This document shows positions 48,001 through 64,000 of a stretch of 64,000 nucleotides of DNA, piece by piece. Made by a program: the position numbers and the translations under genes. The notes under the pieces are model-generated. The model was not told where the DNA came from, ran no database searches, and saw only the letters and a program-made list of their open reading frames with translations. Positions within the stretch are counted from its first letter, which is position 1. Each line of letters begins with the position of its first letter. Source of the stretch: an uncultured bacterium (lineage in GTDB: Bacteria > Krumholzibacteriota > Krumholzibacteriia > LZORAL124-64-63); the NCBI GenBank assembly GCA_903912525.1, contig CAIWHK010000007.1, positions 22,563 to 86,562 of the forward strand. The letters run 5' to 3'.

Positions 48001-48429
48001 CGTGGCCTGCGTGGCCTTGTTCGCCGCGGGGATCAGTGCCCGCTCGGCGTCGAGCAGCTGCCGCGCCGCCTGGGCTTGCTTCTGCCGCGCCAGCGTCGAC
48101 TGCTTCAGGTGGGGCGTGAGCCCGAGGCCCGCCATCGCGGCGGCATCGCCGGCGCGGACACCGGTGCTCTGGAGATCGTCGCTGCCATTCACGAGCCGCG
48201 CGTAGCAGATCACGCCGGTGCCCGCATCGCGGACCAGAGTGAAGCCGTCGAGCGATTCGATGTGCTGCGAATACTCGTCGCCCCAGACCAGCACGGGCAC
48301 GGCGGCGCCGTCGGGCTGCCGCAGGTCGAAACGGGCGCCGTGGTAGGGGGCGGCGGTGGCGGCGGAGGCCAGGAGGAGCGACAGCGCCAGGGTGACGGGG
48401 GCGGTGAGCCGGGCGAAGTGGCGGAGCAT
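45013..48429 (-). CDS. Secreted M6-family (immune inhibitor A-like) metalloprotease with FG-GAP/VCBS repeats and T9SS C-terminal domain
   Basis: Signal peptide MLRHFARLTAPVTLALSLLLASA; HExxH in FCHENGHMLCGWPDLYD; repeated DxDxDGxxD FG-GAP-like motifs; C-terminus YPNPFNPTTTIAFDL. Confidence 0.75.
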   Translation of the reverse strand: MLRHFARLTAPVTLALSLLLASAATAAPYHGARFDLRQPDGAAVPVLVWGDEYSQHIESLDGFTLVRDAGTGVICYARLVNGSDDLQSTGVRAGDAAAMAGLGLTPHLKQSTLARQKQAQAARQLLDAERALIPAANKATQATTVGNVRGITLLIDFSDQPATIAAADFDAYLNLPGYTGYSSHGSVRDYFYDVSGGLLTYTNFSPTVYYRAAQPKSYYDSASQTYGTSARALIREALIALNNSGFDYSQYDSNHDGVIDALNAFYAGEPSMGWSVGLWPHSSSISYSADGVSTYRYQITNIGSGPSLATFCHENGHMLCGWPDLYDYDSDSSGVGQFCLMCNSGPANNPVQPCAPLKDTAGWSASVTALTSVATNLPVTAGSNHFYRVSNPARSGEYYMIENRQQAGRDAALPDAGLAIWHVDTSGNNSYQDMTAARHYYCTLVQADGRWDLEYYLNYGDYTDLWSAPGSTLLTPATSPAARWWNGSVAPVYIDQISASASTMTFSYRPAVGSLAVNIAVQPAGLQAPWRLDGPDGYQETGVGDASVVVWAPGLFTLTWLGVPGWTSPSPAVVTGTVATSGAALAFTGVHTNAPFTATSAGALGDAGAGRGVSLLDYDADGDLDLYICNRGSANRLLRNDGNLSFTDIATGLLTDTGLTMAAAWCDFDGDGDQDVYLSRDGQANQLLANNGNGTFTNIAQYGVDDAGAGRAAAWCDYDRDGLLDLSLVNTGTASMLARSYGNIGTGQFFFMPQAIAALQTAGTGTAAPWADYDGDGDLDVYRVMSWQANQLVQNGGGGTFLVTGQAANGSSGQAAAWGDVDNDGDLDLYLVNDGSADVLYRNDGTYWTTLTGPGLGDTGSGRGLAMADFDNDGRLDIYVCRFSEPDLLLFGADAGQFGVSQLLPAAQGATTAVACGDLDGDGGQDLYLSRDGQPNVLLRNTISGRGHWLQLDLKGKGTNIAAIGARVWCVVGGVSQLRHVSAGGESLAQNALRVAFGLGAATTADSVVVRWPDGTTTVRLNVAGDRVLTIDQNVASDVAQPSVVPSVTALGAPYPNPFNPTTTIAFDLATAGTVELAVYSLDGRRVTTLITGEQVAGRHTTVWDGRDDRGRPVASGSYMCRLVTGGGEWVRRLALVK

Positions 48430-48545
48430 GGGTACGTCCCGTGGTCGATGGTGGCGGTGCCGGGTGTGTGAGGGCCGGTGGGGATGACAATAGTGCATTA
48501 TAACGCGTTTGGGGGTGATGGATCTACAGAAATGAGGGGGTGCGC

Positions 48546-48565
48546 CAGTTGCGCCGGCGCAAGTC
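48546..48565. repeat. REP-like palindrome CAGTTGCGCCGGCGCAAGTC
   Basis: Between the M6 protease start region and the YhcG1 stop. Confidence 0.8.
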
Positions 48566-48591
48566 CCCCGCACCGTAGTCGCAATTTATAA

Positions 48592-49690
48592 CTACCTCAG
48601 CCGCCCCCGAAACGCCCGCTGTGACTTGAGGATTTCCTGCCGCAACGCTTCCGTGTCCGGCAGCATGGTCAGGTAGCGCGAGGCAAAGACGTTGGCGGCG
48701 ATGCCGCCCATCGCGTAGTGGACGACGGCGTCGTTCTTGGCACTGCAGAGGATCAAGCCCACCGGTTCGTGTTCGTCGGGGCCCATGAGGTGTTCGCGGG
48801 CGTAGTTGAGGTAGAGGTTCATCTGGCCGGCGTCGGCGTGGCTGAACTTACCAAGCTTGAGGTCGACCACGACCAGGCAACGCAGGGCGCGGTGGTAGAG
48901 CAAGAGGTCGATGCGATACCACTCGTCGCCGATGCGGATGCGCTTCTGGCGGGCCACGAAGGTGAAGCCGGCTCCCAGTTCGAGCAGGAACGATTCAAGG
49001 TGGCGCACGATGGCGTCCTCGAGGTCGGACTCGCTGTACTCGTCCTTCAGGTCGAGGAACTCGAGGAGGTAGGGGTCGCGGATGTGGTCGCGCAGGGCGA
49101 CGGCATCCGGCGGGGATGGCTTCCTGGCGGACGTGAGCATGCGTTCGGGGTTGGACGAGGCCGAAACGCGCTCGAAGAACTGGGTGCTGATCTGCCTTTC
49201 CAGCTGCCGGACAGTCCAACCGCCGCGAATGGCTTCAGCTTCGTAGAGCGCGCGGGCCTGGGGGTCGCTGACAGACATCAGGCGGATGTAATGGGTCCAC
49301 GACAGGGGGAAGGAATGATGCATAACTGACGCATTTGCAGGCAGTTGTAATTTTACCATCACTGATGGTAAAATCTGATGACTGAGATAAAAAGATCTCA
49401 TTTTGTAAAGACTGGTCGGCGAGAACCCGCGCCCATGCTGGCGGGCCAAGTCGCGCCCCAGCCGCTGCAGCAACTCTTCCCCGTAGATGGCCCGCGGGTT
49501 TCCGTCCTGCTCGAATTCGACGATTCGCCGGCCAATCTCCCAATAGGTCGACACGATGACGCTGCTGGTCGTGCGCACCACGACGCGCCTGGCCTCGTCG
49601 ACCAGGCCGGAGATGCCGACATCAACTCACTGTAGGGCTCCGCACCAGCGGGGCCGGACATCGGCGCGGGGATCCCCGCGTCTTCAGACT
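48592..49690 (-). pseudogene. YhcG-family (DUF1016) nuclease paralog 1 with a -1 frameshift near the N-terminus
   Basis: The body 48592-49581 is intact (VVDLKLGKF PD-(D/E)XK motif). The N-terminal segment MVRKRKSEDAGIPAPMSGPAGAEPYSEL is in another frame; alignment with paralog 2 DNA shows a single-base deletion in copy 1. Contains the internal palindrome 49350-49374. Confidence 0.65.
49350..49374. repeat. AT-rich palindrome ATTTTACCATCA-C-TGATGGTAAAAT inside the YhcG paralog 1 CDS (minus-strand sense encodes QILPSVMVKLQ)
   Basis: Perfect 12+1+12 palindrome embedded in coding sequence. Confidence 0.8.
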
Positions 49691-49969
49691 TTCGTTTCCT
49701 GACCATGATTCCCGTCCCAATCTGCCGGATGTGCCGACGCGGTCCTGATGCCAACGTGGGTTCACGGATGCGGCGCGACGTGTCGCGGACGATATGCGCC
49801 TGCGGGACAACGTCGTGGCGAAGGTGCTGTCTGCGACGAACCGCACGCAGGGCACCAAACGGGCCGTTCCTGTGGAGTTGCACGGGTTGCGCGATGACGC
49901 CAATGGGGCAGCCACGCACGCATTCGCGGTGGCTATAGGGCAGGCGGCGGGCCAGATGGTGAATGAGGC

Positions 49970-49989
49970 AACTTGCGCCGGCGCAAGTC
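49970..49989. repeat. REP-like palindrome AACTTGCGCCGGCGCAAGTC
   Basis: Cassette array; followed 45 bp later by the AT-palindrome 50027-50060. Confidence 0.8.
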
Positions 49990-50026
49990 GGGCCCGTTAC
50001 CGGGCAACTGATTGCTGTTTTGCGAC

Positions 50027-50060
50027 TTGGAATTCTGCCAACAGTGTTGGCAGAATTGGG
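50027..50060. repeat. AT-palindrome family copy TTGGAATTCTGCCAACAGTGTTGGCAGAATTGGG (intergenic remnant, 45 bp downstream of REP 49970)
   Basis: Perfect 11+1+11 core with family-conserved flanks TTGGAATT...AATTGGGCAA. Minus-strand translation RFFAVLPNSANTVGRIPS resembles a YhcG N-domain segment. Confidence 0.75.
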
Positions 50061-50200
50061 CAATACAGCAAAAAATCGCTCATTGGGTGGGTCGCGCAAA
50101 GCTGGTGTCCCCACCGATCTCTCCTTCCCCCAGGGAGAATTCAGCCTGGTATTAGCCGTATCGCAGTATGAATGTCCTCCGCGCTTGTCCGCCGAGGCTC

Positions 50201-50277: not shown

Positions 50278-50351
50278 TTTCTTGGCGGCGATATCCGATC
50301 TGCATATACTCATTGAAGGCCGTACCTGCCTGGACTTCATCGGGGACTACC

Positions 50352-51434
50352 ATGACTGACACCCACGCATTCACGCCAAACTGGGCCTCTCCCCCCGGCA
50401 GTACGATTGCCGACCTGCTGGCCGAGCGCAGCCTGACCCAGGCGGACCTTGCCGACCGCACCGGCTACACGCGCAAGCACATCAACGAACTGGTGCGCGG
50501 CCGCGCGGCGATTTCGTTCGAAGCGGCCCTGAAGCTGGAGACCGTGCTGGGCTCGACGGCCGACTTCTGGATGCGCCGCGAAGTGCAGTACCGCGAGGCG
50601 CTGGCACGGCAGGAGCTCAACCGGCAGTTCAAGGCCTCGGCGCCCTGGCTCAGGCGGATTCCACTGGCAAGCATGGTGCGGCTCGGGTGGGTGGAGCGGT
50701 TCCCTGATTCCGGGCAGCAGGTGGCCGCCTGCCTGCGGTATTTCGGCGTGGCCACGGTCGAGGCCTGGGAAGCGACGTACGCGGAACCCCTGGCGGCCTT
50801 CCGCAGGTCACCCAACGCCGAGACGGCCGGCGCGGCGGCCGCAGCCTGGCTGCGACAGGGCGAACTGCAGGCGGCCGCCATCCGGACCGGGGACTACAGC
50901 GCGTCCGGGTTGCGCGCGTGCCTGCCCCGACTGCGGCAGCTCACGCTGCTCACCGACCCCGACGCATTCGTACCCGCACTGACCGGCATGTGCGCGGAAG
51001 TGGGCATCGCCGTCGTGTTCGTGCCCACGCCGCAGGGATGTCCCGCCTACGGCGCCACGCGGTGGCTCTCTCCCACCAAGGCGCTGCTGATGCTCAGCAA
51101 CCGCACCAAGACCCACGATGTGCTGTGGTTCACCTTCTTCCATGAGATCTGCCACCTGCTGCACCACAGCAAGAAGATGACCGTCATCGAGGGCGGCCGG
51201 AGCCTGGACGCCGGCCTCGAGGAAGAGGCCGACACGTTTGCCGCCCACATCCTGATTCCGCCGGCGGACGCGCGCCGCATCGAGGAATTGCCCCGCAACG
51301 CGGATGCCATTGCTTCGTTCGCCCGTGAGATCGGGGTTGCGCCGGGGATCGTGCTGGGGCGGATGCAGAAGATGGGGCTGATCGGCTGGTCCAGGTGTGG
51401 GGAGTTGAAGGTCAGGTATGAGATCGGCGGGTGA
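50352..51434 (+). CDS. Xre-type HTH fused to ImmA/IrrE-family (COG2856) metallopeptidase domain (HigA2/ImmA-like)
   Basis: N-terminal HTH (LTQADLADRTGYTRKHINELVRG); C-terminal FFHEICHLLHH HExxH motif typical of ImmA/IrrE. Confidence 0.75.
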   Translation: MTDTHAFTPNWASPPGSTIADLLAERSLTQADLADRTGYTRKHINELVRGRAAISFEAALKLETVLGSTADFWMRREVQYREALARQELNRQFKASAPWLRRIPLASMVRLGWVERFPDSGQQVAACLRYFGVATVEAWEATYAEPLAAFRRSPNAETAGAAAAAWLRQGELQAAAIRTGDYSASGLRACLPRLRQLTLLTDPDAFVPALTGMCAEVGIAVVFVPTPQGCPAYGATRWLSPTKALLMLSNRTKTHDVLWFTFFHEICHLLHHSKKMTVIEGGRSLDAGLEEEADTFAAHILIPPADARRIEELPRNADAIASFAREIGVAPGIVLGRMQKMGLIGWSRCGELKVRYEIGG

Positions 51435-51440
51435 CCTGGC

Positions 51441-51460
51441 CACTTGCGCCGGCGCAAGTC
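51441..51460. repeat. REP-like palindrome CACTTGCGCCGGCGCAAGTC
   Basis: 7 bp after the ImmA stop; followed by the AT-palindrome 51497-51530. Confidence 0.8.
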
Positions 51461-51496
51461 CGGCCGGATCGCGCCTAAGCGATTGATTTCCCGCTC

Positions 51497-51530
51497 TTTG
51501 GAATTTTATCATCACTGATGAGAATATTGG
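51497..51530. repeat. AT-palindrome family copy TTGGAATTTTATCATCACTGATGAGAATATTGGG
   Basis: Imperfect arms (2 mismatches); 37 bp downstream of REP 51441. Confidence 0.7.
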
Positions 51531-51546
51531 GCAACGCCGGCAGGCC

Positions 51547-52708: not shown

Positions 52709-53824
52709 TCAGCGCAACCGCCCCAGAAACGCCCTCTGCGTCCGAATGATCTCCTGCCGCAGCGACTCCGTGTCCGGCAGCACCGTCAGGTAGCGCGAGG
52801 CGAAGACGTTCGCGGCGATGCCGCCCATCGCGTAGTGGACGACGGCGTCGTTCTTCGCGCTGCAGAGAATCAAGCCCACCGGCTCGTGCTCGTCGGGGCC
52901 CATGAGGTGCTCGCGCGCGTAGTTGAGGTAGAGGTTCATCTGGCCGGCGTCGGCGTGCGTGAACTTGCCGAGCTTGAGGTCGACCACGACCAGGCAGCGC
53001 AGCGCGCGGTGGTAGAGCAAGAGGTCGATGCGGTACCACTCGTCGCCGATGCGGATGCGCTTCTGCCTCGCCACGAACGTGAAGCCGGCGCCCAGTTCGA
53101 GCAGGAACGATTCGAGGTGGCGGACGATGGCGTCCTCGAGATCGGACTCGCTGTACTCATCCTTCAGGTCGAGGAACTCGAGGAGGTACGGGTCGCGGAT
53201 GTGGTGCTGCAGTTCGGCGGGGTCGACAGGCGCGGGCTTGCGCGCGGCGGCGAGCATGCGGTCGGGGTTGGCGGACGCGGTGACGCGCTCGAAGAACTGC
53301 GTGCTGATCTGGCGGTCGAGCTGGCGGACGGACCAGCCGGAGCGGATAGCTTCGGATTCGTAGAGGGTGCGGGCGGCGTGGTTTTCGACGGACATCAGAC
53401 GGACGTAATGTGACCACGAAAGGGGGAAGGAAATGGGCGTAACTGACGACTCATCAAGTGTTTGTAATTTTCTCGACACTGTCGAGAATATCTGCAATTC
53501 CAGATAAAAACATCTCATTTTGTAAAGTCCCGGCCTGGAGAATCCCCTGCCGTATCGGCTGGACAGATCGCGCCCCAGACGCGTGAGCAACTCTTCGCCA
53601 TACTCGGCGCGGACACGCCCACCCTGTTCATATTCGACGATTCGGCGTCCGATTTCCCAGTACGCCGACACGACGACGCTTTGCGTCGATCGCACGACAG
53701 AGCGCCGGGCCTCTTCCAGTAGGCCGGAGATTCCCGTCACCAGTTCTCCGTAGGGCTCCGCGCCGGATGCACCGGACGTCGGTGCGGGGACCCTCGCGTC
53801 CCGAGGCTTTCGATTCCTGGCCAT
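52709..53824 (-). CDS. YhcG-family (DUF1016) nuclease, paralog 2 (intact)
   Basis: About 88% protein identity to paralog 1 across the body; contains the internal palindrome 53467-53492. Confidence 0.7.
   Translation of the reverse strand: MARNRKPRDARVPAPTSGASGAEPYGELVTGISGLLEEARRSVVRSTQSVVVSAYWEIGRRIVEYEQGGRVRAEYGEELLTRLGRDLSSRYGRGFSRPGLYKMRCFYLELQIFSTVSRKLQTLDESSVTPISFPLSWSHYVRLMSVENHAARTLYESEAIRSGWSVRQLDRQISTQFFERVTASANPDRMLAAARKPAPVDPAELQHHIRDPYLLEFLDLKDEYSESDLEDAIVRHLESFLLELGAGFTFVARQKRIRIGDEWYRIDLLLYHRALRCLVVVDLKLGKFTHADAGQMNLYLNYAREHLMGPDEHEPVGLILCSAKNDAVVHYAMGGIAANVFASRYLTVLPDTESLRQEIIRTQRAFLGRLR
53467..53492. repeat. AT-rich palindrome AATTTTCTCGACA-C-TGTCGAGAATAT inside the YhcG paralog 2 CDS (sense encodes QIFSTVSRKLQ)
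   Basis: 1 arm mismatch; same codon position as in paralogs 1 and 3 but a different half-site sequence. Confidence 0.8.
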
Positions 53825-54087
53825 GCTTCCCATTCCCATCTGCCGGATGTACCGACGCGGTCCAGATGCCAACGAGAGTTCACGGAAGAGGCGCGATGTG
53901 TCGCGGGTGATGGGCGCCTGCGGTGCGACGTCGGGGATGAATCATTGCCGACGACAAACCACATTCGCGGCGCCAATCGAGCCTTTCCTAGGGAGATGCC
54001 GGCGCTGGGCGGCGGCGCCGATTAGGCGGCCACGCACACACAGCGATGGCCATTGAGGCAGGCGGCAGGCCAGATGGTGAACGTGGC

Positions 54088-54107
54088 GACGTGCGCCGGC
54101 GCAAGTC
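54088..54107. repeat. REP-like palindrome GACGTGCGCCGGCGCAAGTC
   Basis: Cassette array; followed by the AT-palindrome 54145-54177. Confidence 0.8.
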
Positions 54108-54144
54108 AGCCCGATTTCGGCGCAAACAGTTGTCGCGGCGTGAC

Positions 54145-54177
54145 TTGGAATTTTACCATCACTGATGGTAAAATTGG
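54145..54177. repeat. AT-palindrome family copy TTGGAATTTTACCATCACTGATGGTAAAATTGG (intergenic remnant)
   Basis: Core identical to the YhcG1 internal palindrome. Flanking 30 bp on both sides align to the YhcG1 3' end and to the YhcG1 sequence next to its palindrome, so this looks like an internally deleted yhcG copy. Confidence 0.75.
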
Positions 54178-54400
54178 CCAAAACAGAAAACAATCTCACA
54201 TCAAGCAACATCGGCACGCACTGCTGCGCGCTACCGCGAGGCCGTGAACACACATCCAATCGGTGCCGCCCTGGCGAAGAACGCGCCCCTGTGCCCACTC
54301 CTGGCGGCGCTCCCAGCCGCCCACCTCAGAACGCCGGACCAAGCAGACCGGCCGATCCGGGCACAACTGCTGCCTACAAATGGTCGCGAACCGCCGCACC

Positions 54401-54533: not shown

Positions 54534-55127
54534 TTGTGCATGGACACCAAGACACAAAGCCACCGCGCCGGCCCCAGCTGGGACCAGCTCTACGAAACCG
54601 CTGCCGCCCAGGCCGGCCACTTCACGACGGCCCAGGCCGAGGCCGCGGGGTACTCGCCCCAGCTGCTGGCCAAGTACCTGGCCAACGGGCGTGTGGTCAG
54701 GGTGCGTCGCGGCGTGTACCGCCTCACCCATTTTCCGGCGGGCGAACTCGAGGAGTTCGCCGTCGTGTGGCTGTGGAGCGAGCGGGCCGGGGTCTTTTCG
54801 CATGAGACGGCGCTGTTTCTGCATGGGCTGTCCGATGCGCTGCCGTCACGAGTCCACCTGACGCTGCCCGCGGATTGGCGTCGGCGAAGGCTGCGCGTAC
54901 CGGATGGCGTCGCGACGCACTTCGGCGAGGTGGCCGGTGCGGATCGCGGCTGGGTGGGCCCGGTGCCTGTGACCGCTGTTGCGCGGACGCTCGTCGATTG
55001 TGCGGAGGCCGGGGTTGCGCCGGAGATGGTGCGCGATGCCATGGAGCAGGCGATCGAGCGTGGGATGATTCGCAAGGGATCAGTGCCGCGACTTGCGCCG
55101 GCGCAAGTCCGGCCGGATCGCGCCTAA
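54534..55127 (+). CDS. AbiEi-like (COG5340) antitoxin/regulator, orphan; C-terminus encoded by a REP copy
   Basis: WDQLYETAAAQAGHFTTAQAEAAGYSPQLLAKYLANGRVVRVRRGVYRL winged-helix N-domain typical of AbiEi. The last residues LAPAQVRPDRA are translated from REP 55090-55109. Confidence 0.5.
   Translation: MCMDTKTQSHRAGPSWDQLYETAAAQAGHFTTAQAEAAGYSPQLLAKYLANGRVVRVRRGVYRLTHFPAGELEEFAVVWLWSERAGVFSHETALFLHGLSDALPSRVHLTLPADWRRRRLRVPDGVATHFGEVAGADRGWVGPVPVTAVARTLVDCAEAGVAPEMVRDAMEQAIERGMIRKGSVPRLAPAQVRPDRA
55090..55109. repeat. REP-like palindrome GACTTGCGCCGGCGCAAGTC (perfect)
   Basis: Forms the 3' end of the AbiEi-like ORF 54534-55127; followed by the AT-palindrome 55147-55180. Confidence 0.85.
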
Positions 55128-55145
55128 GCGATTGATTTTCCGCGC

Positions 55146-55320
55146 CTTGGAATTTTATCATCACTGATGAGAATATTGGGCAAAGCCGATCAGGTCCTGG
55201 CGATATCAGCAATGGAACCACTCGAGGCCAAAAGAAAAACCCCGGCGTGTGGCCAAGCCAGACCCCGGGGGGATTAAGGTGCCCGGTCCCGTGGAATCCG
55301 AGCGGCTGTAAGTATAGCCG
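55146..55320. other. Deletion derivative of the 51441-52300 cassette: REP, AT-palindrome, about 25 bp of NYN 3' end, then the terminator hairpin; the NYN ORF is precisely missing
   Basis: 55090-55205 aligns to 51441-51565 and 55206-55320 aligns to 52190-52300, with about 640 bp absent in between. Confidence 0.6.
55147..55180. repeat. AT-palindrome family copy TTGGAATTTTATCATCACTGATGAGAATATTGGG (duplicate of 51497-51530)
   Basis: Part of the duplicated cassette 55090-55320. Confidence 0.7.
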
Positions 55321-55357: not shown

Positions 55358-56152
55358 TCACACATCGCCTTCCTCCACGCCCCCCACCAGTCCCACCGGC
55401 ACGATCAACCGCCACCTGCGGACGAGTCGGCCTCCGCGCGCGCGGTCGAGGTGCACCGGCTGGGCCGGCAGCAGCGACTGCAGGCTGGCCAGGGTCGCGT
55501 CGGGCACGGCCAGTTCGCGCTGGCGGGTGTCGAGCAAGAAGCCGACCCTCGACGCGAGCGTGCGGTTGGCGAGGACGCGGACGTACGCGAGCAGCGCGTC
55601 CGGGTCGATGGCCGGGATCGCCATCAGCGAGCGCCACACCTCGTCGAGGCCGCCGGCAATCGATGGCCGGTCGAGAACGTCGGCCACCGTGCGCTCGAGG
55701 CTGGTCACGCGCACTTCGAGTCCATTGCGGTCCAGGACGTCGATCCACGCCTGCTGCGGGTGGCGCGCGCGCAACTCGCACCGCGGCTGCACCGGCGACA
55801 GGCGGCGGCCCCGGAACGTGGCGGCACGGGCTCGCGTCCAGGTGATGAACGTGAAATTGTCGGACAGGCTCTGCGCACAACCGTGCGCCTCGAGCGCCGT
55901 GTGGTAGGCGGCGGCCGCGTCCGGCGCCATGCGGGCGGCCAGCGCGATGTAATCGGGGGTTGGCTCCCAGGGCTCCGTTGACCCCGGCGGACGACCGACA
56001 TACAGGCCGCTCTTCACGCGCAGCAACCGGCCCTGGCGTACCCAGCGGGCGAGGTGGGCATCGACGGTGGCAGGAGCGCGACCGGGGAGCGCGGCGATCA
56101 GCTCGTCGCGGGTGAAGAGCGGGGTCGTGGCCAGGAAGTGGTCCGGCTTCAT
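55358..56152 (-). CDS. AbiEi-like (COG5340) antitoxin/regulator, orphan
   Basis: MKPDHFLATTPLFTRDELIAALPGRAPATVDAHLARWVRQGRLLRVKSGLYV N-domain typical of the family; GGGAGG RBS. Confidence 0.5.
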   Translation of the reverse strand: MKPDHFLATTPLFTRDELIAALPGRAPATVDAHLARWVRQGRLLRVKSGLYVGRPPGSTEPWEPTPDYIALAARMAPDAAAAYHTALEAHGCAQSLSDNFTFITWTRARAATFRGRRLSPVQPRCELRARHPQQAWIDVLDRNGLEVRVTSLERTVADVLDRPSIAGGLDEVWRSLMAIPAIDPDALLAYVRVLANRTLASRVGFLLDTRQRELAVPDATLASLQSLLPAQPVHLDRARGGRLVRRWRLIVPVGLVGGVEEGDV

Positions 56153-56162
56153 GTTAGTGCCT

Positions 56163-56194
56163 CCCAATATTTGCAATTTATTACAAATTATGGG
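56163..56194. promoter_or_regulatory. Imperfect 32-bp palindrome CCCAATATTTGCAATTTATTACAAATTATGGG overlapping RBS/5' UTR of the AbiEi-like gene 55358-56152; candidate autoregulatory operator
   Basis: Inverted repeat immediately upstream of the start codon. AbiEi proteins are known to autoregulate through inverted repeats. Confidence 0.35.
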
Positions 56195-56294
56195 CGTCTA
56201 CAACAACGGTGTCGCATGGCCGACCAGCCGCCGGTCCCGGTTGCAGGGCGCCGCCACGAAACACAACGGGCCCCAGTAGGAGCCCAGGGCCTGC

Positions 56295-56314
56295 GACTTG
56301 CGCCGGCGCAAGTC
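56295..56314. repeat. REP-like palindrome GACTTGCGCCGGCGCAAGTC (perfect); last copy in the window
   Basis: Followed by the AT-palindrome 56351-56384. No copies are found in the lower-GC island beyond 56.7 kb. Confidence 0.85.
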
Positions 56315-56350
56315 CCCCCAAACGCAGCATAAACGACGACTCTTCAGCCG

Positions 56351-56384
56351 TTTGTAATTCTCCCGACAGTGTCGAGAGAATTGG
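56351..56384. repeat. AT-palindrome family copy TTTGTAATTCTCCCGACAGTGTCGAGAGAATTGG
   Basis: 1 arm mismatch; 36 bp downstream of REP 56295. Confidence 0.7.
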
Positions 56385-56499
56385 ACCATACCGAAAGAAA
56401 TCCCACCCAGCCCACCTCGGCCGCGCCAGCTCGCTCCGCCGGCCACCACCACCCGGCCCGGCGAGCCCAGCGCACCCTGGCCGCACCCCCACCCACCAC

Positions 56500-56700
56500 A
56501 ACCGCAGCACCTGACGAGGCCCCCCCGACCCGGACGCGTTCGGGCCCGCCCTGGCCGGCAGGTGCGCGGAGGTGGGCGTCGCCGTCGTGATCGTGCCCGC
56601 GCCGCAGGGGTGTCCGGCGGGCGGGGCCTCGCGGTGGCTGGCACGCGCCAGGGCGCTGGTGATGGCTGGTGGCCGGACCAGGAGCGGCGTCATGTCGTAA
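56500..56700 (+). pseudogene. Fragment of a second ImmA/IrrE-family gene
   Basis: Translation DPDAFGPALAGRCAEVGVAVVIVPAPQGCPAGGASRWL aligns to DPDAFVPALTGMCAEVGIAVVFVPTPQGCPAYGATRWL of the intact gene 50352-51434; the peptidase HExxH region is missing. Confidence 0.45.
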
Positions 56701-56896
56701 CACGTTCTGCCATGATTGGTTAGCTTCGCATGGTCGTCGGCCTGCTCGATCGAGAAGACCGAAATCGCTCAACTTCCCGCCCTATTGTGCCGAAGACAGA
56801 ATGCCTCTTTCGGCATCGATGGGAAGTATCGCGATTGACCGATATTCGCAGTGCGCTTGGCACCATGACCGGCCACTGCAATGAGGAGGGATGACA

Positions 56897-57235
56897 ATGC
56901 CGGCGCGTAACGCCCAACAGCGCAGCCACAGTATCTACGTCATCGAGCTCGACAAAGCAGTTCTGCAGATCAAGCGCTTTCGCGAAGCGAATCCGGGCTA
57001 CAGGGAAGGGATGCCGTGCGTCTACGTCGGGATGACTTGCCGCACGCCGGAAGAGCGCTTCAGGCAGCACATTTCCGGCTACAAGGCCGCGAGGCTCGCG
57101 CATCGATTCGGGATACGATTGAAACCACGACAATACCGAGCGTTCAATCCCATGACCAGAGCCGAGGCAAAGTACATGGAAGTCGAAAAGGCGCGACGGC
57201 TGCGCAATCGGGGATATGGAGTCTGGCAGAACTAG
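56897..57235 (+). CDS. GIY-YIG nuclease-family small protein
   Basis: SIYVIEL and VYVGMTCRTPEERFRQH resemble GIY...YIG/R/H signatures. GAGGAGGG RBS. Local GC about 58%. Confidence 0.5.
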   Translation: MPARNAQQRSHSIYVIELDKAVLQIKRFREANPGYREGMPCVYVGMTCRTPEERFRQHISGYKAARLAHRFGIRLKPRQYRAFNPMTRAEAKYMEVEKARRLRNRGYGVWQN

Positions 57236-57284
57236 GCGACAGACGCTCCGGATCCCCTGGGTCGAACCCCCATAGCCGGAACCC

Positions 57285-58850
57285 CTACTCCCGATACTTC
57301 GCCACCAAATCACACTGCACCGTCTTGTGCGTCATCCACGAGAACTTGTTGTCGAACATGAGGTAGTACTTCCCATCCGCGCGAATGGGGACCTCCATCT
57401 CCGCCGCCGTGACGACTCCCGAATCGTAGATCGCCTTTGCGGCATGCCCGTTGGACCAATTGAGATAGTTGAGTTCGTCCAGCAGCAGAATGCGAACATC
57501 GTTGCCAGTGCCGCCCTGCGCCAACATGCGCCCACAAAGCGAGTATTCGCCATACACGCTGGGGGTCAGGTTTAGCACCAAGCCTTCCGCCTCGCCGGCA
57601 GGAATGAAAACGGCCTGTGAGGTCAACGCCTCCTGCCTCAGCGGATACGGCAGGCCAGCCAACCGCGCCTGAACCTCATGAAACGCCTGCGTGTCGCTCC
57701 GCAGGTCATTCAGGTTCAGCTTCGGCAATTCTGCCTCGGTGTTGGCGATGCGTTCTTCCGCGGCCGGATGAGTCTGAAAGAAGACCTCAAATGCCGACGG
57801 ATCCCCGCCCGCGTTCTTGCGAAGGGTCTCGAACATGCTCGTCATCGCCCGCGGGTCATAGCCCATCCGGTAGAGCGTATAGATGGCCAGGAAATCGGAC
57901 TCGCGCTCGTCGTCGCGCGAATAGTCCATCTGCTGGAAGAAAGCCACCGCACCGCCAGCCTCAGTGATCATCTGGCGCCGCTTCTCGTCCCCGCCGCTCA
58001 GCAACTCGCCGCCGGCGGCGACAATGCCCGCCATGATCAGCTGATTTGTCAGGGATCGGGCGGTGTGCTTGCCAACGATGTGGCCGACTTCGTGAGCAAT
58101 GACGCCCGCCAGTTCGGCTTCGCTCGACATCTGATCAATCAGGCCGCGATAGATGAAGACCTGGCCGCCGCCCACGGTAAAGGCGTTGACAGTGCGGGAA
58201 TCGATCACCTGGAACGAATAGGCGATGTCGCGCCGGCGAGAGGCTCCGGCGATGCGCTGGCCGAGGTCATTCACGTAGGCTGTCACCAATGAGTCGGCGA
58301 GCATTGGCTCGGATTCGGTGATCATCGCTCCGTTTTGGAGTCCCATCGCAACTTCGAGATCGTCGCCAAGGATATTGAACGATGTGCCGTAGTCGTGCCG
58401 GTCGTCGTCCAGCACCTTGTCGCCGAATACGATTGCCCGCAGATCAGCCGTCTTGAATTCGGACAGCTTCCAGCCGTCCGAGGCGACGCGACACTTGAGT
58501 CGATCCTTATCGAACTTCCTGAGCATGACCGGCACGATAGTGCCATCCCGCAGATAGAGGACATCGCAGGAATCAGCAGCCGTCGTGGTGACCGAGTCGC
58601 CCACCGTGAAAGTGATCCCGAAGAGGTCCCGAAGTGCGATCTCTTTCTTGGCTTTGTCCTGCTTGGCCTTGAAGAGTAGTCGGTCCTCTTTGTAGCCGTC
58701 GAAGACCAGGCTCTCAGCATGGCCGTCCGCGAAGATGAACTGCATAGGAACTGGCGGCTCACCTGCGCAAACAGGCGCAGCTACAATGCAAGCTAGCGTC
58801 ATCGCGCCAAGAACCGCGAGAACAAAGCCAACACGAATGTGATGCATCAT
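57285..58850 (-). CDS. Secreted/membrane-anchored M48-family Zn metallopeptidase
   Basis: N-terminal hydrophobic segment MMHHIRVGFVLAVLGAMTLACIVAAPVCA; HExxH in VIAHEVGHIVGKH with a downstream E; M48-like architecture. Confidence 0.65.
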   Translation of the reverse strand: MMHHIRVGFVLAVLGAMTLACIVAAPVCAGEPPVPMQFIFADGHAESLVFDGYKEDRLLFKAKQDKAKKEIALRDLFGITFTVGDSVTTTAADSCDVLYLRDGTIVPVMLRKFDKDRLKCRVASDGWKLSEFKTADLRAIVFGDKVLDDDRHDYGTSFNILGDDLEVAMGLQNGAMITESEPMLADSLVTAYVNDLGQRIAGASRRRDIAYSFQVIDSRTVNAFTVGGGQVFIYRGLIDQMSSEAELAGVIAHEVGHIVGKHTARSLTNQLIMAGIVAAGGELLSGGDEKRRQMITEAGGAVAFFQQMDYSRDDERESDFLAIYTLYRMGYDPRAMTSMFETLRKNAGGDPSAFEVFFQTHPAAEERIANTEAELPKLNLNDLRSDTQAFHEVQARLAGLPYPLRQEALTSQAVFIPAGEAEGLVLNLTPSVYGEYSLCGRMLAQGGTGNDVRILLLDELNYLNWSNGHAAKAIYDSGVVTAAEMEVPIRADGKYYLMFDNKFSWMTHKTVQCDLVAKYRE

Positions 58851-58899
58851 ACAATTCCTTCCGTTCGTCCCGATAGGCGAACTGCTGCACTCCCAAAGA

Positions 58900-60570
58900 T
58901 TATCGCCGAAAAATCCGCATTCCAGCCTGTTCCTCAAAAGCCGCGCAAATGAGCTGCAACCGCTCCGACCTGAACTTCTCAAATGCTGCCGCAGTCCCCT
59001 TCTGCCAGACACCGCCACTGGGTCCCGCGGGGATCAGGTGACTTCGTACAACCCGCGCAAAGCGCTGCCGATTTTCGTCGCGACACGCACTCAGGTACAC
59101 GCGCGGCAACTTCATCCCGATGGCCAAATTGTCTTGCGACACCAGAAAACAGATGTTACACAAGCCGTTATATACACTGGCCGGGAAGTGAGCATGCAGT
59201 TGCCCCTTCGGGAAGATGTGGTGCCGATGCGCCACGTTTGCGTAACTCGCAATGTCTGTTGAGAGATTGATCGGCTCTCCGTTTTCCAAGTACCGCGGAC
59301 GAGATGCCGCGAGTAGGCAGAAGTAGACTCGGGTTCGGGCTGCTTTCGATGAATACTCGGCGTTTTGGATCGTCGCGATCGGATCTAGCTGGCTCTCCAG
59401 GACAAACGTCCGGGACTTGCCGCGCGCGAGATCGGCGAACAACTGGGCATCGGCGACAAGATTCTGATGATATCCGCGGCCACTGTATCGCTGCGCCACG
59501 CCAGTGGCCCAGAACCACTTCCGAATCTCCTTCCGCGCCTTTGTGTGCGGTTGACCGGGGTGGTGATAGAAGTAGGACGCCAGCGTCGCCGGCATATTGG
59601 CCGACGGCAAGTACGATTCATCGTAGACCCAGAAATGGGACCGCAGGTAGTCGACAGCGGAAAGGAATGACCGTTGATAGCGATCCCAGGTCTTTTCAAA
59701 CTGTTTGACATTGGCCTTTCCGCTATTCAATTCACGTGACCAACGCGCAGCCATTGTCTCAAGTTTCGGGGGCACACCTCTCCCGTTGGGCTTTTCGTGG
59801 ATTAGATTGAAGCCCATCAGAATCGGATCGACACCTTCGAGGCGGAACGACTTGGCGGCCAATCGCTGACGGACGTCCTCCGCCATAGCGCGAATGTCCA
59901 TTTCACCCATGATGGCGATTGCACGATCAGCGGAGGTGATGCGCATTCCTTGCGAATTGACCCTGATGAAGACCTCTCCGATTTCCTCGAGCGAGGCCTG
60001 CGCAACAGTCACGATGGGCACCGGGTAGTTCAGGATGCGGTGCCTGCAATCTGCAATTTGCTTCATCATCCAGGCCGGCTTGCCCTTCAGTCGAACTCGC
60101 CAATCAAGAGCCAGAATGTCTACAAGCGGCACTAGGTGCTTGCCAATCGGTCGACGATAGACGATCCGCTGAGAGTCTCGTTGCTCAGCCGTGGCTGCGG
60201 CGACAAAACACAGGCGCGAAAAATGAATCTCGCGGCCACGGTCATTGATTTTTGTCTCGCCAGCAAATGCCTGGTGGATGACGGACAGCCGCTGCTGACC
60301 ATCAATCACGAACCAAATCTGCTTATGGTCGGGGTCGTAGTGTGGCAGCACCGCTGACGACTGGCGGATGAGATTGGCGGCCTTACGCTCCATCTCCCAG
60401 AGGAAGATGGAACCGATCGGGATGTTCCGATAAATGGAGTCTAGCAGCTTCGCGGCCCTCCCCGCGTCCCACACGAAGTTGCGCTGGAGCTTTGGGATCG
60501 CATATCGCCTGGCGACCAACTCACGGCGCAAGGCGCCGATCCGTTTCTTCTTGATTGCCGGAGGCCTCAT
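58900..60570 (-). CDS. GmrSD-family type IV (modification-dependent) restriction endonuclease-like protein (DUF262 plus DUF1524)
   Basis: N-terminal QRNFVWDAGRAAKLLDSIYRNIPIGSIFLW and DGQQRL (ParB-like DUF262); C-terminal HRHHIFPK (His-Me finger DUF1524 motif). Confidence 0.7.
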   Translation of the reverse strand: MRPPAIKKKRIGALRRELVARRYAIPKLQRNFVWDAGRAAKLLDSIYRNIPIGSIFLWEMERKAANLIRQSSAVLPHYDPDHKQIWFVIDGQQRLSVIHQAFAGETKINDRGREIHFSRLCFVAAATAEQRDSQRIVYRRPIGKHLVPLVDILALDWRVRLKGKPAWMMKQIADCRHRILNYPVPIVTVAQASLEEIGEVFIRVNSQGMRITSADRAIAIMGEMDIRAMAEDVRQRLAAKSFRLEGVDPILMGFNLIHEKPNGRGVPPKLETMAARWSRELNSGKANVKQFEKTWDRYQRSFLSAVDYLRSHFWVYDESYLPSANMPATLASYFYHHPGQPHTKARKEIRKWFWATGVAQRYSGRGYHQNLVADAQLFADLARGKSRTFVLESQLDPIATIQNAEYSSKAARTRVYFCLLAASRPRYLENGEPINLSTDIASYANVAHRHHIFPKGQLHAHFPASVYNGLCNICFLVSQDNLAIGMKLPRVYLSACRDENRQRFARVVRSHLIPAGPSGGVWQKGTAAAFEKFRSERLQLICAAFEEQAGMRIFRR

Positions 60571-60849
60571 GACACAAGCACCTTCCAGAATTCTTGCTCA
60601 ACGCACCGTGGCATTCGACCCGATATCGCCTGAGTGGCGGCACGTCATTTGAGAAATACGCTCAAACTGGCTTACACCTAAGCCGCTTAGTTACTCATCT
60701 TACCGCGCCAACCCCACCGGCTTCAAGTCTAGCAATTCCAATGGACATCCAGATGGGGTATCCTGGCGTCCTCCTGGAACCGAACTCAATCCGATTTTGG
60801 CCTCAATCGTTGTCGGTGATGCAGACATGCGGCCCGACTGGAGAATTGG

Positions 60850-61236
60850 ATGAACAACTGTCCGTTCTGCCCACCATACGGGTTTCGAGCTATCCAAGAA
60901 TCCGAGTCCAGCCTGGCCCTGTATGACAGCTACCCCGTCTCGCCCGGCCACGCCCTCATCGTGCCCCGTCGCCACGTCCCCTCGTGGTTTGACCTCCTAG
61001 AACCGGAGCAAATCGACCTTCTAAAGTTGGCCAACCTCGTCAAAGGCCATTTAGACCTGGAACGGCACCCCATCGCCTACAACCTGGGCATAAACGACGG
61101 CCCCCAAGCCGGCCAGTCCATCCCCCACGTCCACCTGCACCTTATCCCACGCTACGCCGGCGATCAGGTTGATCCGCGGGGTGGAATTCGGCTAATCTTC
61201 CCCGAGAAGGCCAGATACTGGGAAGATGGCAAATAG
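60850..61236 (+). CDS. HIT-family (histidine triad) protein
   Basis: HVHLHLIP histidine-triad motif; CPFC zinc-binding N-terminus. Confidence 0.75.
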   Translation: MNNCPFCPPYGFRAIQESESSLALYDSYPVSPGHALIVPRRHVPSWFDLLEPEQIDLLKLANLVKGHLDLERHPIAYNLGINDGPQAGQSIPHVHLHLIPRYAGDQVDPRGGIRLIFPEKARYWEDGK

Positions 61237-61272
61237 CTGAATTCAAGCCCGATACCGATAAGGACTAGTCTA

Positions 61273-64000
61273 TGGCGAAGCACCTGGTCACCGGCGGCGC
61301 AAATGACCCCCTCCTGCCGCTCATCCGCGATGCCATCAACAGCGCCGATGAAATCGAATTGGCGGTGGCCTTCATCAAGAGCAGCGGCCTTGAGCTCCTC
61401 TATCCCGCGCTCCAGGAGGCGGTAGTCGAACGCGGAGCGAAGCTCGCACTGCTGACCAGCGACTACCTCGACGTCACCGATCCTCAAGCGCTCCGGGACC
61501 TGATGCTGCTCGCAGACCGCGGCGCCGACGTGCGCGTATTCCAGACGTCCGGAAGCGATAGCTTCCACCTCAAGGCGTATATTTTCGTTCGACGGCATTC
61601 CGAAACTGGATTCGACGGCATTGCATTCGTCGGTTCGAGCAATATCAGCCGTCCCGCCCTTACTGACGGAATCGAATGGAACTATCGCATTGAATCCGAA
61701 ACCAATTCGGGAGATGTTGAAGGTTTTCGCGAAATTAGAGCCGCATTTTGCAAACTGATCGCGAATCCAGCCGTCATTGCGCTCGACTACGAGTGGATTG
61801 CCGATTACGAAGCCCGGCGCGCGCCCATCGCACAACTGGTGGCACCCGGCGCCCTGGATCCCGAATTGCCCACCCCAGTTCCTAACGCCATTCAAGCCGA
61901 GGCCCTGGAGGCCCTGGCCGCGTCTCGGCTCGCGGGCTACAAGCGCGGTCTGGTGGTTCTGGCGACGGGTCTTGGTAAGACGTTCCTTGCCGCTTTTGAC
62001 ACCCACGCCACGGACGCTCGACGGGTCCTGTTCGTTGCCCACCGCGAGGAGATCCTTCTCCAGGCCGAAAAGACCTTTCTGCGGATACATCCGCAGGCTA
62101 AAGTGGGTAGCTTTGGCAATGGTGCCCGCGATGTGGCCGCCGACATGCTCTTTGCGTCAGTGCAAACGCTTGGACGCGCGGCGCACCTGGACACATTTGC
62201 ACCGGATCACTTCGACTACGTCGTGATCGACGAATTTCACCACGCGCACGCGCCGACCTATCGCCGACTCCTTCAGCACTTCACACCGAAGTTTTTACTA
62301 GGCATGACCGCCACGCCCAAACGTACAGACCAGTCGGACATCCTGAGTCTTTGCGACAACAATCTCGTCTACGAGCGGAATCTGATCGCCGGCGTCACCG
62401 AAGGCTATTTGTGCCCATTTACCTACTTCGGCATATACGACGACACGGTCGACTACGACGACATCAAATGGCGCAATGGAAAATTCGACCCTGAGGCTCT
62501 TACCAGCAAACTCGCGACAATGGCACGGTTTCGGCACGTCCTCAACGAGTGGCAAGCGAAAGGCACAAAGAAGACCCTCGCCTTTTGCTCCGCGAAGAAG
62601 CACGCCCAATTCATGGCCGATCAATTCAATGCTGCGGGCGTTCCCGCAGCCGCCGTCTACGATGGCTCAAGTATGGCTAGGGATACTTCACTTGCTCATC
62701 TCAAGACCGGCACCCTTCAGGTCATCTTCTCCGTAGACATCTTCAGCGAAGGCGTGGACATTCCTGAGGTCGACACGGTACTCATGCTGCGCCCAACCGA
62801 ATCACAAGTGCTCTTTCTTCAACAACTTGGTCGAGGCTTGCGCAGATGTGAGGGCAAAGAGCGGCTCACCATTCTTGACTTCGTCGGCAACCACCGGGCG
62901 TTCCTAAACAAGCCCCAGGCCCTGTTCAACGTGGAGGGCAACTACCGCGCGCTCGCAGAATTTGCCAATCAGGTCAAAGATGGAACACTCAGCCTGCCTG
63001 CCGGGTGCTTTGTTAATTATGACCTTGAGATCATTGAATTCCTGCAAGCCCTCGCCGGCAATGGACCTGCAGTAGACTATGACAATCTGAAGGCAGCGCT
63101 TAATCGGAGACCGTCATTGACCGAATACTTCTACTCGGGGGCCAGCCTACCTCAAATGCGCAACGCTTCCGGTAGCTGGTGGGGACTCGTGCGAGATGCC
63201 AATGACCTTAGTGACCAAGAAGCGAATTGCTATTTGCAGTACAAAGACTTCCTCCGGGATGTTGAGACAACGCGCTTTGAAAAATGCTACAAAGCCGTCC
63301 TCCTCGAGTCCTTCTTAGACCTTGACGGATTCGCCAATCCGCCCACCCTGGACGCTCTCGCGTCCCAGGCCCTCGCTGTGTTTCGACGCAGAAGAACATT
63401 CATCGAAGACCTTCCTTCCGAGTTTGCGGACATCGACAAAGTCGACCCCGCTGCCTGGCGTCGCTATTGGGATCGCAACCCCGTAAATGCATGGCGGGGC
63501 GGCAACCTTCAGGACCCGGCTGCAGCGTGGTTTGAAGTAGTCGACGACAGGTTCCGCGGCAGGTTTATAGTGCCGACTGACGAACTTGAGACCTTTTCAA
63601 GCATGCTCCAGCAGGTCGTGGAGTACCGGCTAGCCAACTATGCGCGGCGGTTCAACCGCAGCGCGAGTCCGCAGAACCCAGCCACCACGGGAATTCCTGT
63701 CTTTGCAAATCTTGAGATCGCTTGCGGTCATTTCCGGCCAGGCGACACGAAGGTTAACCGCTACAAGCGCCTCCCGGCCCAATTCGGATCGCTCGATGAA
63801 ACTCGGCATTTCATTGCTCGCGCTTCTGGAGAATCTATGAATGGCGGAAAACGGCCAATCCGCGATGGCGACTACATGCTACTAGAACGCAACTTACAAC
63901 CGCAACTTCCGCCACCCCACCAGGAAACTGTTGTTGTTTCGCGGCCGAATGCGACTGGAACTCGCGAGTACATTCTTCGCATTGCAAATGCGCAACTCGA
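61273..64000 (+). CDS. PLD-family nuclease domain fused to SF2 (ResIII/DEAD-like) helicase with C-terminal DUF3427-like region; 3' partial
   Basis: HxK(x4)D(x6)GSxN motif in FHLKAYIFVRRHSETGFDGIAFVGSSNIS; Walker A LATGLGKTF; Walker B VVIDEFHH; helicase C motifs LQQLGRGLRR. The ORF continues beyond the window end. Confidence 0.7.

Follow-up and report, generated by a model that had tools for sequence, protein, structure and literature searches.

Type IV restriction enzymes of the BrxU/GmrSD kind act against DNA that carries hydroxymethylcytosine (hmC) or glucosyl-hmC, and UmuD and LexA, which belong to peptidase family S24, cleave themselves on RecA filaments. SauUSI, a type IV ATP-dependent restriction enzyme of Staphylococcus aureus, is described as a single polypeptide (PMC3141236, PMC7913695), with a helical coupler at residues 618–805 and an SRA-fold recognition domain at residues 806–953 (PMC7913695). 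Here, we analyzed a 64,000-nucleotide stretch of DNA from an uncultured bacterium of the Krumholzibacteriota (assembly GCA_903912525.1, contig CAIWHK010000007.1, positions 22,563 to 86,562; hereafter, the window), the end of which encodes a HIT-family protein, a SauUSI-like nuclease-helicase and a GmrSD/BrxU-family DUF262 protein. We read 56.69–64.0 kb as the left part of a mosaic anti-phage island, which lies at a variable hotspot rich in repetitive extragenic palindromic (REP) sequences in a bacterium of ~67% GC content, continues past the window end, and holds two independent enzymes of the type IV kind, one GmrSD/BrxU-like and the other made up of the HIT and SauUSI-like proteins. We put the probability of this reading at about 0.72.

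The SauUSI-like enzyme and its partner genes

The preliminary description of this DNA, which was made from the letters and their open reading frames (ORFs), had identified a PLD(HxK..D..GSxN)-helicase gene at the window end. Matches to PLDc_2, ResIII, and Helicase_C supported this assignment, to which we add the likeness to SauUSI that had been missed. In a phmmer comparison, residues 5–552 of the protein aligned with residues 31–572 of SauUSI (PDB 7clg; 8.7e-87), and the PADLOC model mREase_IV matched at 7.7e-110. All catalytic motifs of the PLD nuclease and the superfamily 2 (SF2) motor were intact. Residues 580–815 matched no family, and DUF3427 was undetected within the window. The DUF3427-like tail that had also been claimed was present in the 74–78% identical full-length relatives P0001–P0003, as well as in L006, L009, and L010, and absent from the window, where the protein is cut at residue 909. 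Full-length relatives have ~1,085–1,100 aa, with the C-terminal half of DUF3427 at ~955–1089 (Pfam). Among the 120 best homologues of the helicase, 71 had DUF3427, 49 ended after the S24 module that precedes it, and 24 had an N-terminal class-I S-adenosylmethionine (SAM) methyltransferase. The AlphaFold2 (AF2) model of P0002 (78% identical; mean predicted local distance difference test score, pLDDT, 83) was helical at residues 585–795 and beta-rich at 805–945, ended in an alpha/beta domain, and matched SauUSI 7clg end to end (E = 6e-43). Relatives of the helicase were spread across unrelated phyla, as were those of the GmrSD-like and HIT families.

The HIT gene lies 35 nt upstream of the helicase start. 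It had been named in the preliminary description and was confirmed by Pfam, and what had gone unnoticed is that HIT is the conserved partner of the helicase. The best solved relatives of the HIT protein were Fhit (1.6e-15) and Ap4A phosphorylase, and the only HIT model in PADLOC, ThsC, which belongs to a different system, matched at 2.6e-08. We then took a census of partner genes at 48 loci with a relative of the helicase in species-representative genomes and at three metagenome loci (L055–L057). Of the 48 loci, 10 had HIT on the helicase strand at a distance of no more than 42 nt, one had it 1.3 kb away, and two, L018 (Gemmatimonadetes) and L019 (Thermoanaerobaculia), had it fused to the N-terminus of the helicase. 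The three metagenome loci, which hold the closest relatives (74–78% identity), all had HIT directly upstream, with a gap of 35 nt in L055 and L056; L057 begins within the 3′ end of HIT. When the L018 fusion was used as the query, every one of the 120 best matches carried HIT, PLD, helicase, and DUF3427 in one chain of ~1,190 aa. These fusions came from Myxococcaceae, Latescibacterota, and many metagenomes and formed at least 120 protein clusters.

Two other partners, encoded by small genes in the position of HIT, were found in the census. A methyltransferase of the TehB/Methyltransf_25 type was present in 18 of the 48 loci and fused in 24 of the 120 best homologues, and in 13 loci a MazG-like PRA-PH pyrophosphatase was no more than 250 nt away (HIT was also present in six of these), with two further loci having it at 1–4 kb. 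The methyltransferase overlapped the helicase start or was fused to it (~1,290 aa) in L006–L017, L025, L031, L036, L038, L039, L046, L050, and L051 and in P0053, P0080, P0109, and others; this SAM-dependent partner is no recognisable DNA methyltransferase. At least one of the three partners was found in 39 of the 48 loci, which sets the branch apart from the single-polypeptide organization of SauUSI and marks a difference, not proof of dependence. When a crude neighbour-joining tree was built from the nuclease-motor region, the partner types came out interleaved, suggesting repeated partner swapping. As judged from sequence, the adjacency and fusion of HIT, and its replacement by the methyltransferase or accompaniment by the MazG-like protein elsewhere, show it to be an accessory module integral to this enzyme subfamily.

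The S24-like module and the GmrSD-like neighbour

Between the coupler-like region and the window end, the helicase carries the start of a UmuD/LexA-like module, also missed before, in which IACGHF occupies residues 816–821 and GESM residues 853–856. Peptidase_S24 scored 25–31 bits at ~827–945 in full-length relatives, above its Pfam cut-off of 23.3, with DUF3427 behind it. A817, C818, G819, S855 (in GxSM), and R903 (P0002 numbering) were invariant in 53 homologues, and the spacing from Cys-Gly to Ser, 36 residues, was as in UmuD. A profile built from 15 S24 segments aligned to UmuD over the Cys24-Gly25 cleavage site and the Ser60 motif, a weak match (E = 0.042), and a PDB search with the segment as a single sequence gave no match. 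The module has the predicted cleavage-site and nucleophile signature of the family. At the position of the catalytic Lys (K156 in LexA, K97 in UmuD) stands the invariant Arg R903 (EYILR in the window), and because this Lys is missing, the module is not called an active S24 peptidase.

In the GmrSD-like protein, DGQQR lies at residues 90–94 (nt 60289–60303) and a candidate His-Me motif, HRHHIFPK, at nt 59206–59229. PADLOC model PDC-M55C matched over the full length (2.5e-36) and HEC-05 at 3.2e-28. The sole solved relative was BrxU (PDB 7p9k), with a sequence alignment that covers the N-terminal part only. In a Foldseek search with the AF2 model (pLDDT 66), only BrxU chains were significant (E = 1.5e-10, TM score 0.41), and the alignment spanned both proteins; pLDDT fell below 50 at residues 426–526, the C-terminal candidate nuclease region. 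An enzyme of DUF262 plus DUF1524 had been described earlier. The first half of this architecture stood (GmrSD_N, 2.7e-22), and for the second we found the motif without any hidden Markov model (HMM) match: residues 358–556 had no Pfam match to DUF1524 even at E ≤ 10, the PDB profile search did not reach this region, and DUF1524 was annotated in none of 120 homologues of this protein (56–63% identity). The pattern RHHxFP...CNxCxLV...N was kept in the homologues, with R449, H450, H451, P454, N472, and N481 invariant; it would fit a His-Me finger and is not proof of one.

The nearest homologue of the GmrSD-like protein (63% identity) lies between SNF2/NOV_C helicase and DUF1156 methylase/DUF499 ATPase genes on Terriglobia-type contigs that have no PLD-helicase; it was found in L063–L069, at 5001–6674 in L063. 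This context seems to be the origin of the PADLOC 'Hma-embedded candidates'. It fits the HEC-05 match and shows the GmrSD-like protein to be a self-contained cassette moving between contexts. A metagenome scan with the protein returned only relatives of 22–26% identity, which were uninformative.

On the basis of these comparisons, the island would hold two separate units. The first would be the stand-alone GmrSD/BrxU-family protein (58900–60570, minus strand), for which BrxU and GmrSD suggest a separate activity as an NTP-dependent nuclease against modified DNA. The second would be a two-gene module of HIT (60850–61236) and the SauUSI-like enzyme (61272 onward), with the predicted domain order PLD nuclease, SF2 motor, helical coupler, UmuD-like S24 module, and SRA-like DUF3427. 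If it works as SauUSI does, the C-terminal SRA-like domain would bind modified cytosine (PMC3141236, PMC7913695, PMC6765204), this binding would activate ATP-driven translocation, and dimerized PLD domains would then cut the DNA. The S24-like module may serve as a conformational or self-cleaving switch, although the Arg substitution argues against classical catalysis. With low confidence, we propose that HIT hydrolyzes a nucleotide-type molecule, for instance a dinucleoside polyphosphate or some modified nucleotide that arises or is set free in infection. Its activity might stop modified precursors from entering host DNA, which would otherwise become a target, or might act in sensing or in gating of the enzyme through a dinucleoside polyphosphate. 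The alternation and co-occurrence of HIT with an NTP pyrophosphatase and a small-molecule methyltransferase point to nucleotide-pool chemistry.

Two other ways of assigning the enzymes were weighed against this arrangement. According to the preliminary description, the GmrSD-like enzyme and the PLD-helicase may function together as one cooperating system. They are both nuclease-type defence genes, separated by 0.7 kb in which HIT is the sole gene; however, they are divergently oriented, and no homologue of the GmrSD-like protein, the M48 peptidase, or the GIY-YIG-like ORF was found within 10 kb of the helicase in the 48 genome loci or anywhere in L055–L057. Furthermore, the nearest GmrSD-like homologue sits in a cluster without a PLD-helicase, and L055 has a different gene at the GmrSD position. 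Cooperation of the two therefore appears extremely improbable, and the predicted functional unit is HIT with the PLD-helicase, not the GmrSD-like protein with the helicase. It is also conceivable that modification sensing is not the main role of the helicase and that S24 places its nuclease under the control of DNA damage or RecA filaments, for example through a self-cleavage at Cys-Gly by which the recognition domain is released or re-positioned; the enzyme would then be an abortive-infection or SOS-linked effector. The invariant Ala-Cys-Gly and Ser residues at the UmuD spacing and the profile alignment across Cys24-Gly25 speak for such a switch, and the 49 of 120 best homologues that end after S24 suggest that this module can be the sole C-terminal sensor. 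Since Arg does poorly as a general base, the match to UmuD is weak, and the lineage of the window, judged by its relatives, retains DUF3427, we regard this alternative as unlikely. A broader idea sees a large branch of SauUSI-like enzymes as multi-module machines: the nucleotide-processing module would couple nucleotide-pool or alarmone chemistry to restriction, and S24, as a self-cleaving or conformational switch that responds to RecA filaments or single-stranded DNA, would control PLD firing. This idea is a long shot; if it held, a restriction enzyme would be tied directly to the kind of SOS sensing that LexA, UmuD, and phage repressors perform.

Composition, boundaries, and history of the island

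GC content was 0.670 in positions 1–56700 and 0.575 in 56701–64000, the latter being the minimum among all 7.3-kb segments of the window (mean 0.664, sd 0.024). In 1-kb steps, it went from 0.689 (55.5–56.5 kb) to 0.61 (56.5–57.5 kb) and then to 0.55–0.59 beyond 58 kb, and the GC content at third codon positions (GC3) of long ORFs went from 0.82–0.93 before the boundary to 0.67–0.74 in 56.7–64 kb. The fall from ~68% to 55–58% at ~56.7 kb that had been reported was thus about right (67.0% to 57.5% as measured). In the GC-normalised tetranucleotide signature, the island was the most deviant segment (r = 0.75 to the remaining window), with most segments at 0.85–0.94 but 49.3–56.6 kb nearly as deviant (r = 0.755) at host-like GC. 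The sliding GC and tetranucleotide profiles proposed as a check thus revealed a non-uniform composition. The REP core TTGCGCCGGCGCAA occurs in 20 copies, the final one at 56298, and the eight copies of an AT-rich palindrome family all lie within 49.3–56.4 kb. Both repeat families end shortly before the GC fall, in agreement with the stop claimed for them. Because REP gaps elsewhere in the window reach 10.6 kb, the REP-free stretch of 7.7 kb at the island is weak evidence alone.

The left junction is marked by the remnant of an HTH-M78 (ImmA/IrrE) gene. Compared with the paralogous gene at 50313–51434, the fragment was 73.6% identical over 246 nt (matching 50848–51092, blastn) and 66% identical at the amino acid level over residues 215–267 (tblastn), and it has neither the helix-turn-helix (HTH) nor the HExxH part. 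The homology stops at 56685, exactly at the GC fall, indicating that the pseudogene marks the left junction of the island. A degenerate ImmA fragment, a proline-codon-rich junk sequence, and the look of an insertion scar had all been noted here. The fragment is a real M78 pseudogene; the proline-codon-rich sequence exists, not as junk but as the frameshifted 5′ part of the same pseudogene; and the scar is borne out by a truncated pseudogene whose homology ends at the GC drop. We found no repeats at the junction, and when it was compared with the ends of L055, L056, and L057 for att-like direct repeats, REP cores were the only matches. In the promoter and terminator scan, the number of sites was no higher than in shuffled sequence.

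The history of the locus was read from short metagenomic contigs that share the REP family of the window. L055 (JGI 3300033519) starts with 500 bp of GC 0.72, which contain an internally deleted M78 remnant (93% identical to 56491–56549) and a REP core, and continues at ~0.58 GC with a 153-aa gene, then HIT, then the helicase. The 153-aa gene, annotated DNA-SBD_ScoMcrA in a precomputed table, occupies the place of the GIY-YIG-like, M48, and GmrSD-like genes of the window. In L057, three genes and 2.9 kb past the helicase stop, one of the genes encoding an HNH_2 endonuclease, lead to a REP core and GC 0.70. The island parts of these relatives had a GC content of 0.57–0.58. These contigs, assembled independently, indicate a physical link between the HIT-helicase pair and this high-GC genome. 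The 4.1 kb with the GIY-YIG-like, M48, and GmrSD-like genes (56.7–60.8 kb) are specific to the window version, from which we infer a later addition or replacement at the same hotspot. Past the helicase, a gene for an HNH_2 endonuclease of ~307 aa was found at 6023–6946 (minus strand) in L055 and at 4418–5344 (minus strand) in L057, together with paralogous genes of ~200 aa; genes akin to these may lie just past the window end.

PADLOC, which had been proposed for classification, matched mREase_IV, PDC-M55C/HEC-05, and AbiEi, so that at least two recognised defence genes are clustered here; the M48 peptidase and the GIY-YIG-like ORF matched none of its models, and nothing ties either to defence. 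The earlier statement that the block is 'packed with' nuclease and defence genes is thus too strong. Of the claim of a horizontally acquired anti-phage island, foreign composition, a left scar, and variable content were found, and, in the window, no mobility gene, tRNA, or att repeat.

Two other explanations of the block were considered. The low GC content could come from weakly expressed native genes, or the junction could be an assembly chimera of two organisms. The HIT-helicase pair occurs on at least two other contigs with the same REP family and is thus lineage-resident, the junction at 56686–56700 has no independent contig (L054 starts at ~56705), and no mobility genes were found in the window, all of which would agree with such an absence of horizontal acquisition. 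On the other side, the cassette adjoins REP-bearing DNA of 70–72% GC in contigs assembled independently from other samples, on the left in L055 and on the right in L057, a truncated M78 pseudogene sits at the junction, gene content differs between the window and L055, and the helicase, GmrSD, and HIT families are scattered over unrelated phyla, making this explanation highly improbable. Alternatively, a larger mobile element (for instance, a prophage remnant, an integrative and conjugative element, or an integron-like array) could carry the block as its cargo and have its mobility genes beyond the window. In 48.5–56.4 kb, genes are separated by a repeated composite palindromic element of ~100 nt and accompanied by duplications and gene fragments, and an HTH-M78 (ImmA-like) regulator is typical of mobile elements. 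Yet no gene for an integrase or recombinase, no tRNA, and no phage structural gene is seen in the 64 kb, the genes run in both directions, unlike those of integron cassettes, and in L057 the island is over after only three more genes. Membership in a larger element thus seems quite unlikely.

Several observations weigh against the reading of a mosaic island with two type IV-kind enzymes. No integrase, transposase, or recombinase was present among the scanned ORFs of the window, and tRNA and Rfam scans of the window gave no match, so that no tRNA marks the island. The exact M78|GIY join at 56686–56700 is present in one assembly only, L054 starting just beyond it. Since the HIT-helicase pair is shared within the lineage (L055, L057), it would be an old resident of the hotspot and not a recent arrival, and its GC content has not ameliorated. 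The right boundary is indicated at ~3 kb beyond the helicase in the relative L057, and that of the window itself lies past the window end. As to the enzyme, the DUF3427 tail is taken from relatives because the C-terminus lies past the window end, 49 of the 120 best homologues have no DUF3427 at all, and its modification dependence is assumed from SauUSI. In L056, a C5 cytosine DNA methylase gene (4845–5723, minus strand) lies convergent to and just downstream of the HIT and SauUSI-like pair (78% identity), which is odd if the enzyme targets 5-methylcytosine regardless of sequence context. The substrate role of HIT, finally, is a proposal of low confidence.

Table 1. Features of the low-GC block and its left flank (positions in the window; all library values are E-values unless marked as bits)
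Feature	Position	Strand	Evidence
HIT protein of the Fhit branch, 128 aa, triad HVHLHLI at residue 93	60850..61236	+	Pfam HIT 6.8e-22
SauUSI-like restriction nuclease-helicase, first 909 aa, uninterrupted, cut by window end	61272..64000	+	PLDc_2 + ResIII + Helicase_C
PLD domain of the helicase	~61326-61706	+	FHLKAY 61563-61580 (residues 98-103), GSSN 61632-61643 (residues 121-124); PLDc_2 6.4e-08
SF2 motor of the helicase	~61881-62927	+	TGLGKT 61965, DEFHH 62229, TATP 62307, QQLGRGLR 62820
Helical coupler-like region of the helicase	63009-63716	+	Comparison with SauUSI
Start of the S24 module inside the helicase	63717..64000	+	IACGHF 63717-63734, GESM 63828-63839, EYILR 63966-63980
GmrSD/BrxU-family DUF262 protein, 556 aa	58900..60570	-	Pfam GmrSD_N 2.7e-22
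M48 (BepA/LoiP-like) zinc metallopeptidase, N-terminal signal-like segment	57285..58850	-	Pfam Peptidase_M48 4.7e-32
GIY-YIG-like ORF, 112 aa	56897..57235	+	Pfam GIY-YIG 21.0 bits vs cut-off 22.6
HTH-M78 (ImmA/IrrE) pseudogene fragment, both ends truncated, frameshifted	56419..56685	+	blastn + tblastn vs the gene at 50313-51434
Final composite repeat copy: REP palindrome 56295-56318 + AT palindrome 56352-56386	56293..56393	.	Repeat families D1, D5, D9 + alignment
AbiEi antitoxin-like orphan, host-like GC, just outside the low-GC block	55358..56176	-	PADLOC AbiEi 5.1e-69; Pfam AbiEi_4, AbiEi_1
Second AbiEi-type antitoxin/regulator gene	54534..55127	+	Library scans

Two further genes lie between the junction and the GmrSD-like gene. 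The first had been called a GIY-YIG gene; the ORF itself holds, since an identical protein with the start at 56897 is recorded, and the domain is uncertain, the match being sub-threshold, spanning only 34 residues, and backed by no NCBIfam, PADLOC, or PHROG match. Exact look-ups of this protein, HIT, and the GmrSD-like protein gave contigs of less than 2 kb or no match; samples with identical genes include ENA ERZ18657221, ERZ18658410, and ERZ18658644. The M48 peptidase gene was identified as described. Its ORF is open to 59018, with the start MMHHIRV at 58850 and HEVGH from nt 58094 (minus-strand codon), and the NCBIfam BepA-like model matched at 1.4e-36, far under the cut-off of that model. 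The gene follows the GmrSD-like gene in the same orientation after 49 nt, and this predicted secreted, unrelated peptidase may be co-transcribed with the GmrSD-like protein.

Upstream of the junction, 43.8–56.2 kb is already accessory at host GC, with a start near 43.8–49 kb, a point that had also been missed. Besides three YhcG genes, HTH-M78, NYN, and the two AbiEi orphans, this stretch holds gene fragments and a 1.5-kb duplication, suggesting that the GC boundary is one layer of a larger variable region. The tetranucleotide signature of 47.5–56.6 kb was deviant (r 0.75–0.85) despite its host-like GC, which places the start of the variable region well before the GC boundary. No AbiEii toxin or nucleotidyltransferase ORF was found beside either AbiEi-type gene, so neither makes up an AbiE pair. 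The segmental duplication, 48598–50083 and 52715–54201 (75–90% identity, offset 4117 nt), carries YhcG/DUF1016 PD-(D/E)XK paralogues, and a third, more distant YhcG/DUF1016 copy lies at 43893–44909. The composite element of ~100 nt consists of a REP palindrome GACTTGCGCCGGCGCAAGTC, a spacer of ~40 nt, and the AT-rich palindrome TTGGAATTTT..AAAATTGG; its five copies (49968–50068, 51439–51539, 54086–54186, 55088–55188, and 56293–56393) bracket the accessory genes of 48.5–56.4 kb, and it could be a lineage-specific miniature inverted-repeat transposable element or a recombination site. Two more AT palindromes (49345, 53462) lie inside long YhcG ORFs, and a 15-aa N-terminal fragment of the NYN gene (55228–55272) adjoins a 95% copy of 51439–51539. 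The label of an integron-like cassette array for 48.5–56.4 kb was considered and dropped, given mixed gene orientations and no integrase. Elsewhere in the window, four large or medium-sized minus-strand ORFs (18866–19693, 19737–24188, 24258–27176, and 45013–48573) have a common C-terminal domain of ~190 aa (34–36% identity), which matches FlgD_ig in the FG-GAP/ASPIC protein and is possibly a common secretion or anchoring domain.

Comparison with described systems

We found no open-access paper joining HIT or MazG with SauUSI, DUF3427, or type IV restriction, which is absence of evidence, and databases label these proteins 'DUF3427 domain-containing protein' or merely list their domains. On these grounds, the HIT-partnered, S24-containing SauUSI-like enzyme is regarded as a novel form within a known enzyme type, and the island itself as ordinary; the value lies in the helicase module. 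PADLOC treats mREase_IV as a single-protein model, yet a small nucleotide-processing enzyme accompanies the majority of this branch, and many of its members contain a LexA/UmuD-like module. Should activity or self-protection depend on these parts, the one-gene model of the enzyme class would be incomplete, with consequences for annotation, for heterologous tests (a helicase cloned by itself may fail or be toxic), and for the question of how modification-dependent restriction avoids self-damage. The locus also illustrates that a GC boundary can under-call an island, as the variable hotspot begins several kb upstream at host GC.

The GmrSD-like protein shares with BrxU/GmrSD an N-terminal DUF262 with DGQQR, a similar size (556 aa vs 587), and its sole significant fold match, and differs in a DUF1524 undetected by HMMs, a TM score of 0.41, and a nuclease region modelled with low confidence. 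Its family is nearer to PADLOC PDC-M55C and HEC-05, elsewhere embedded in Hma-like clusters. The McaZI/YenY4I group of DUF3427-PD-(D/E)XK fusions resembles the SauUSI-like enzyme in having DUF3427 as a presumed modified-cytosine sensor and in its occurrence in defence islands, whereas its nuclease is of the PD-(D/E)XK type, without helicase, HIT, or S24 modules (PMC6765204). The HIT protein is like Fhit and Ap4A phosphorylase in its HxHxHxx triad and its best solved matches; unlike them, HIT proteins of the window type are encoded as the partner or N-terminal domain of a restriction nuclease-helicase. The S24 module is like UmuD and LexA in the Cys-Gly (UmuD-type), the GxSM Ser 36 residues on, a strand pattern VVVAR...EY(V/L)LR similar to VVVARIDDEVTVKRL of LexA, and relatives above the Pfam S24 cut-off. 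It differs in that an invariant Arg replaces the Lys and in that it is embedded in a 1,090-aa restriction enzyme, not placed on a repressor or polymerase subunit. With SauUSI, the enzyme shares the PLD HxK...GSxN nuclease, the SF2 DExH motor, the helical coupler, and, in full-length relatives, the DUF3427/SRA-like domain, all in the same order. Outside the motor, however, identity is ~20%, the branch of the window has an extra UmuD/LexA-like S24 module between the coupler and the recognition domain, and it comes with an obligate-looking partner (HIT, elsewhere a methyltransferase or a MazG-like protein), whereas SauUSI is a single polypeptide.

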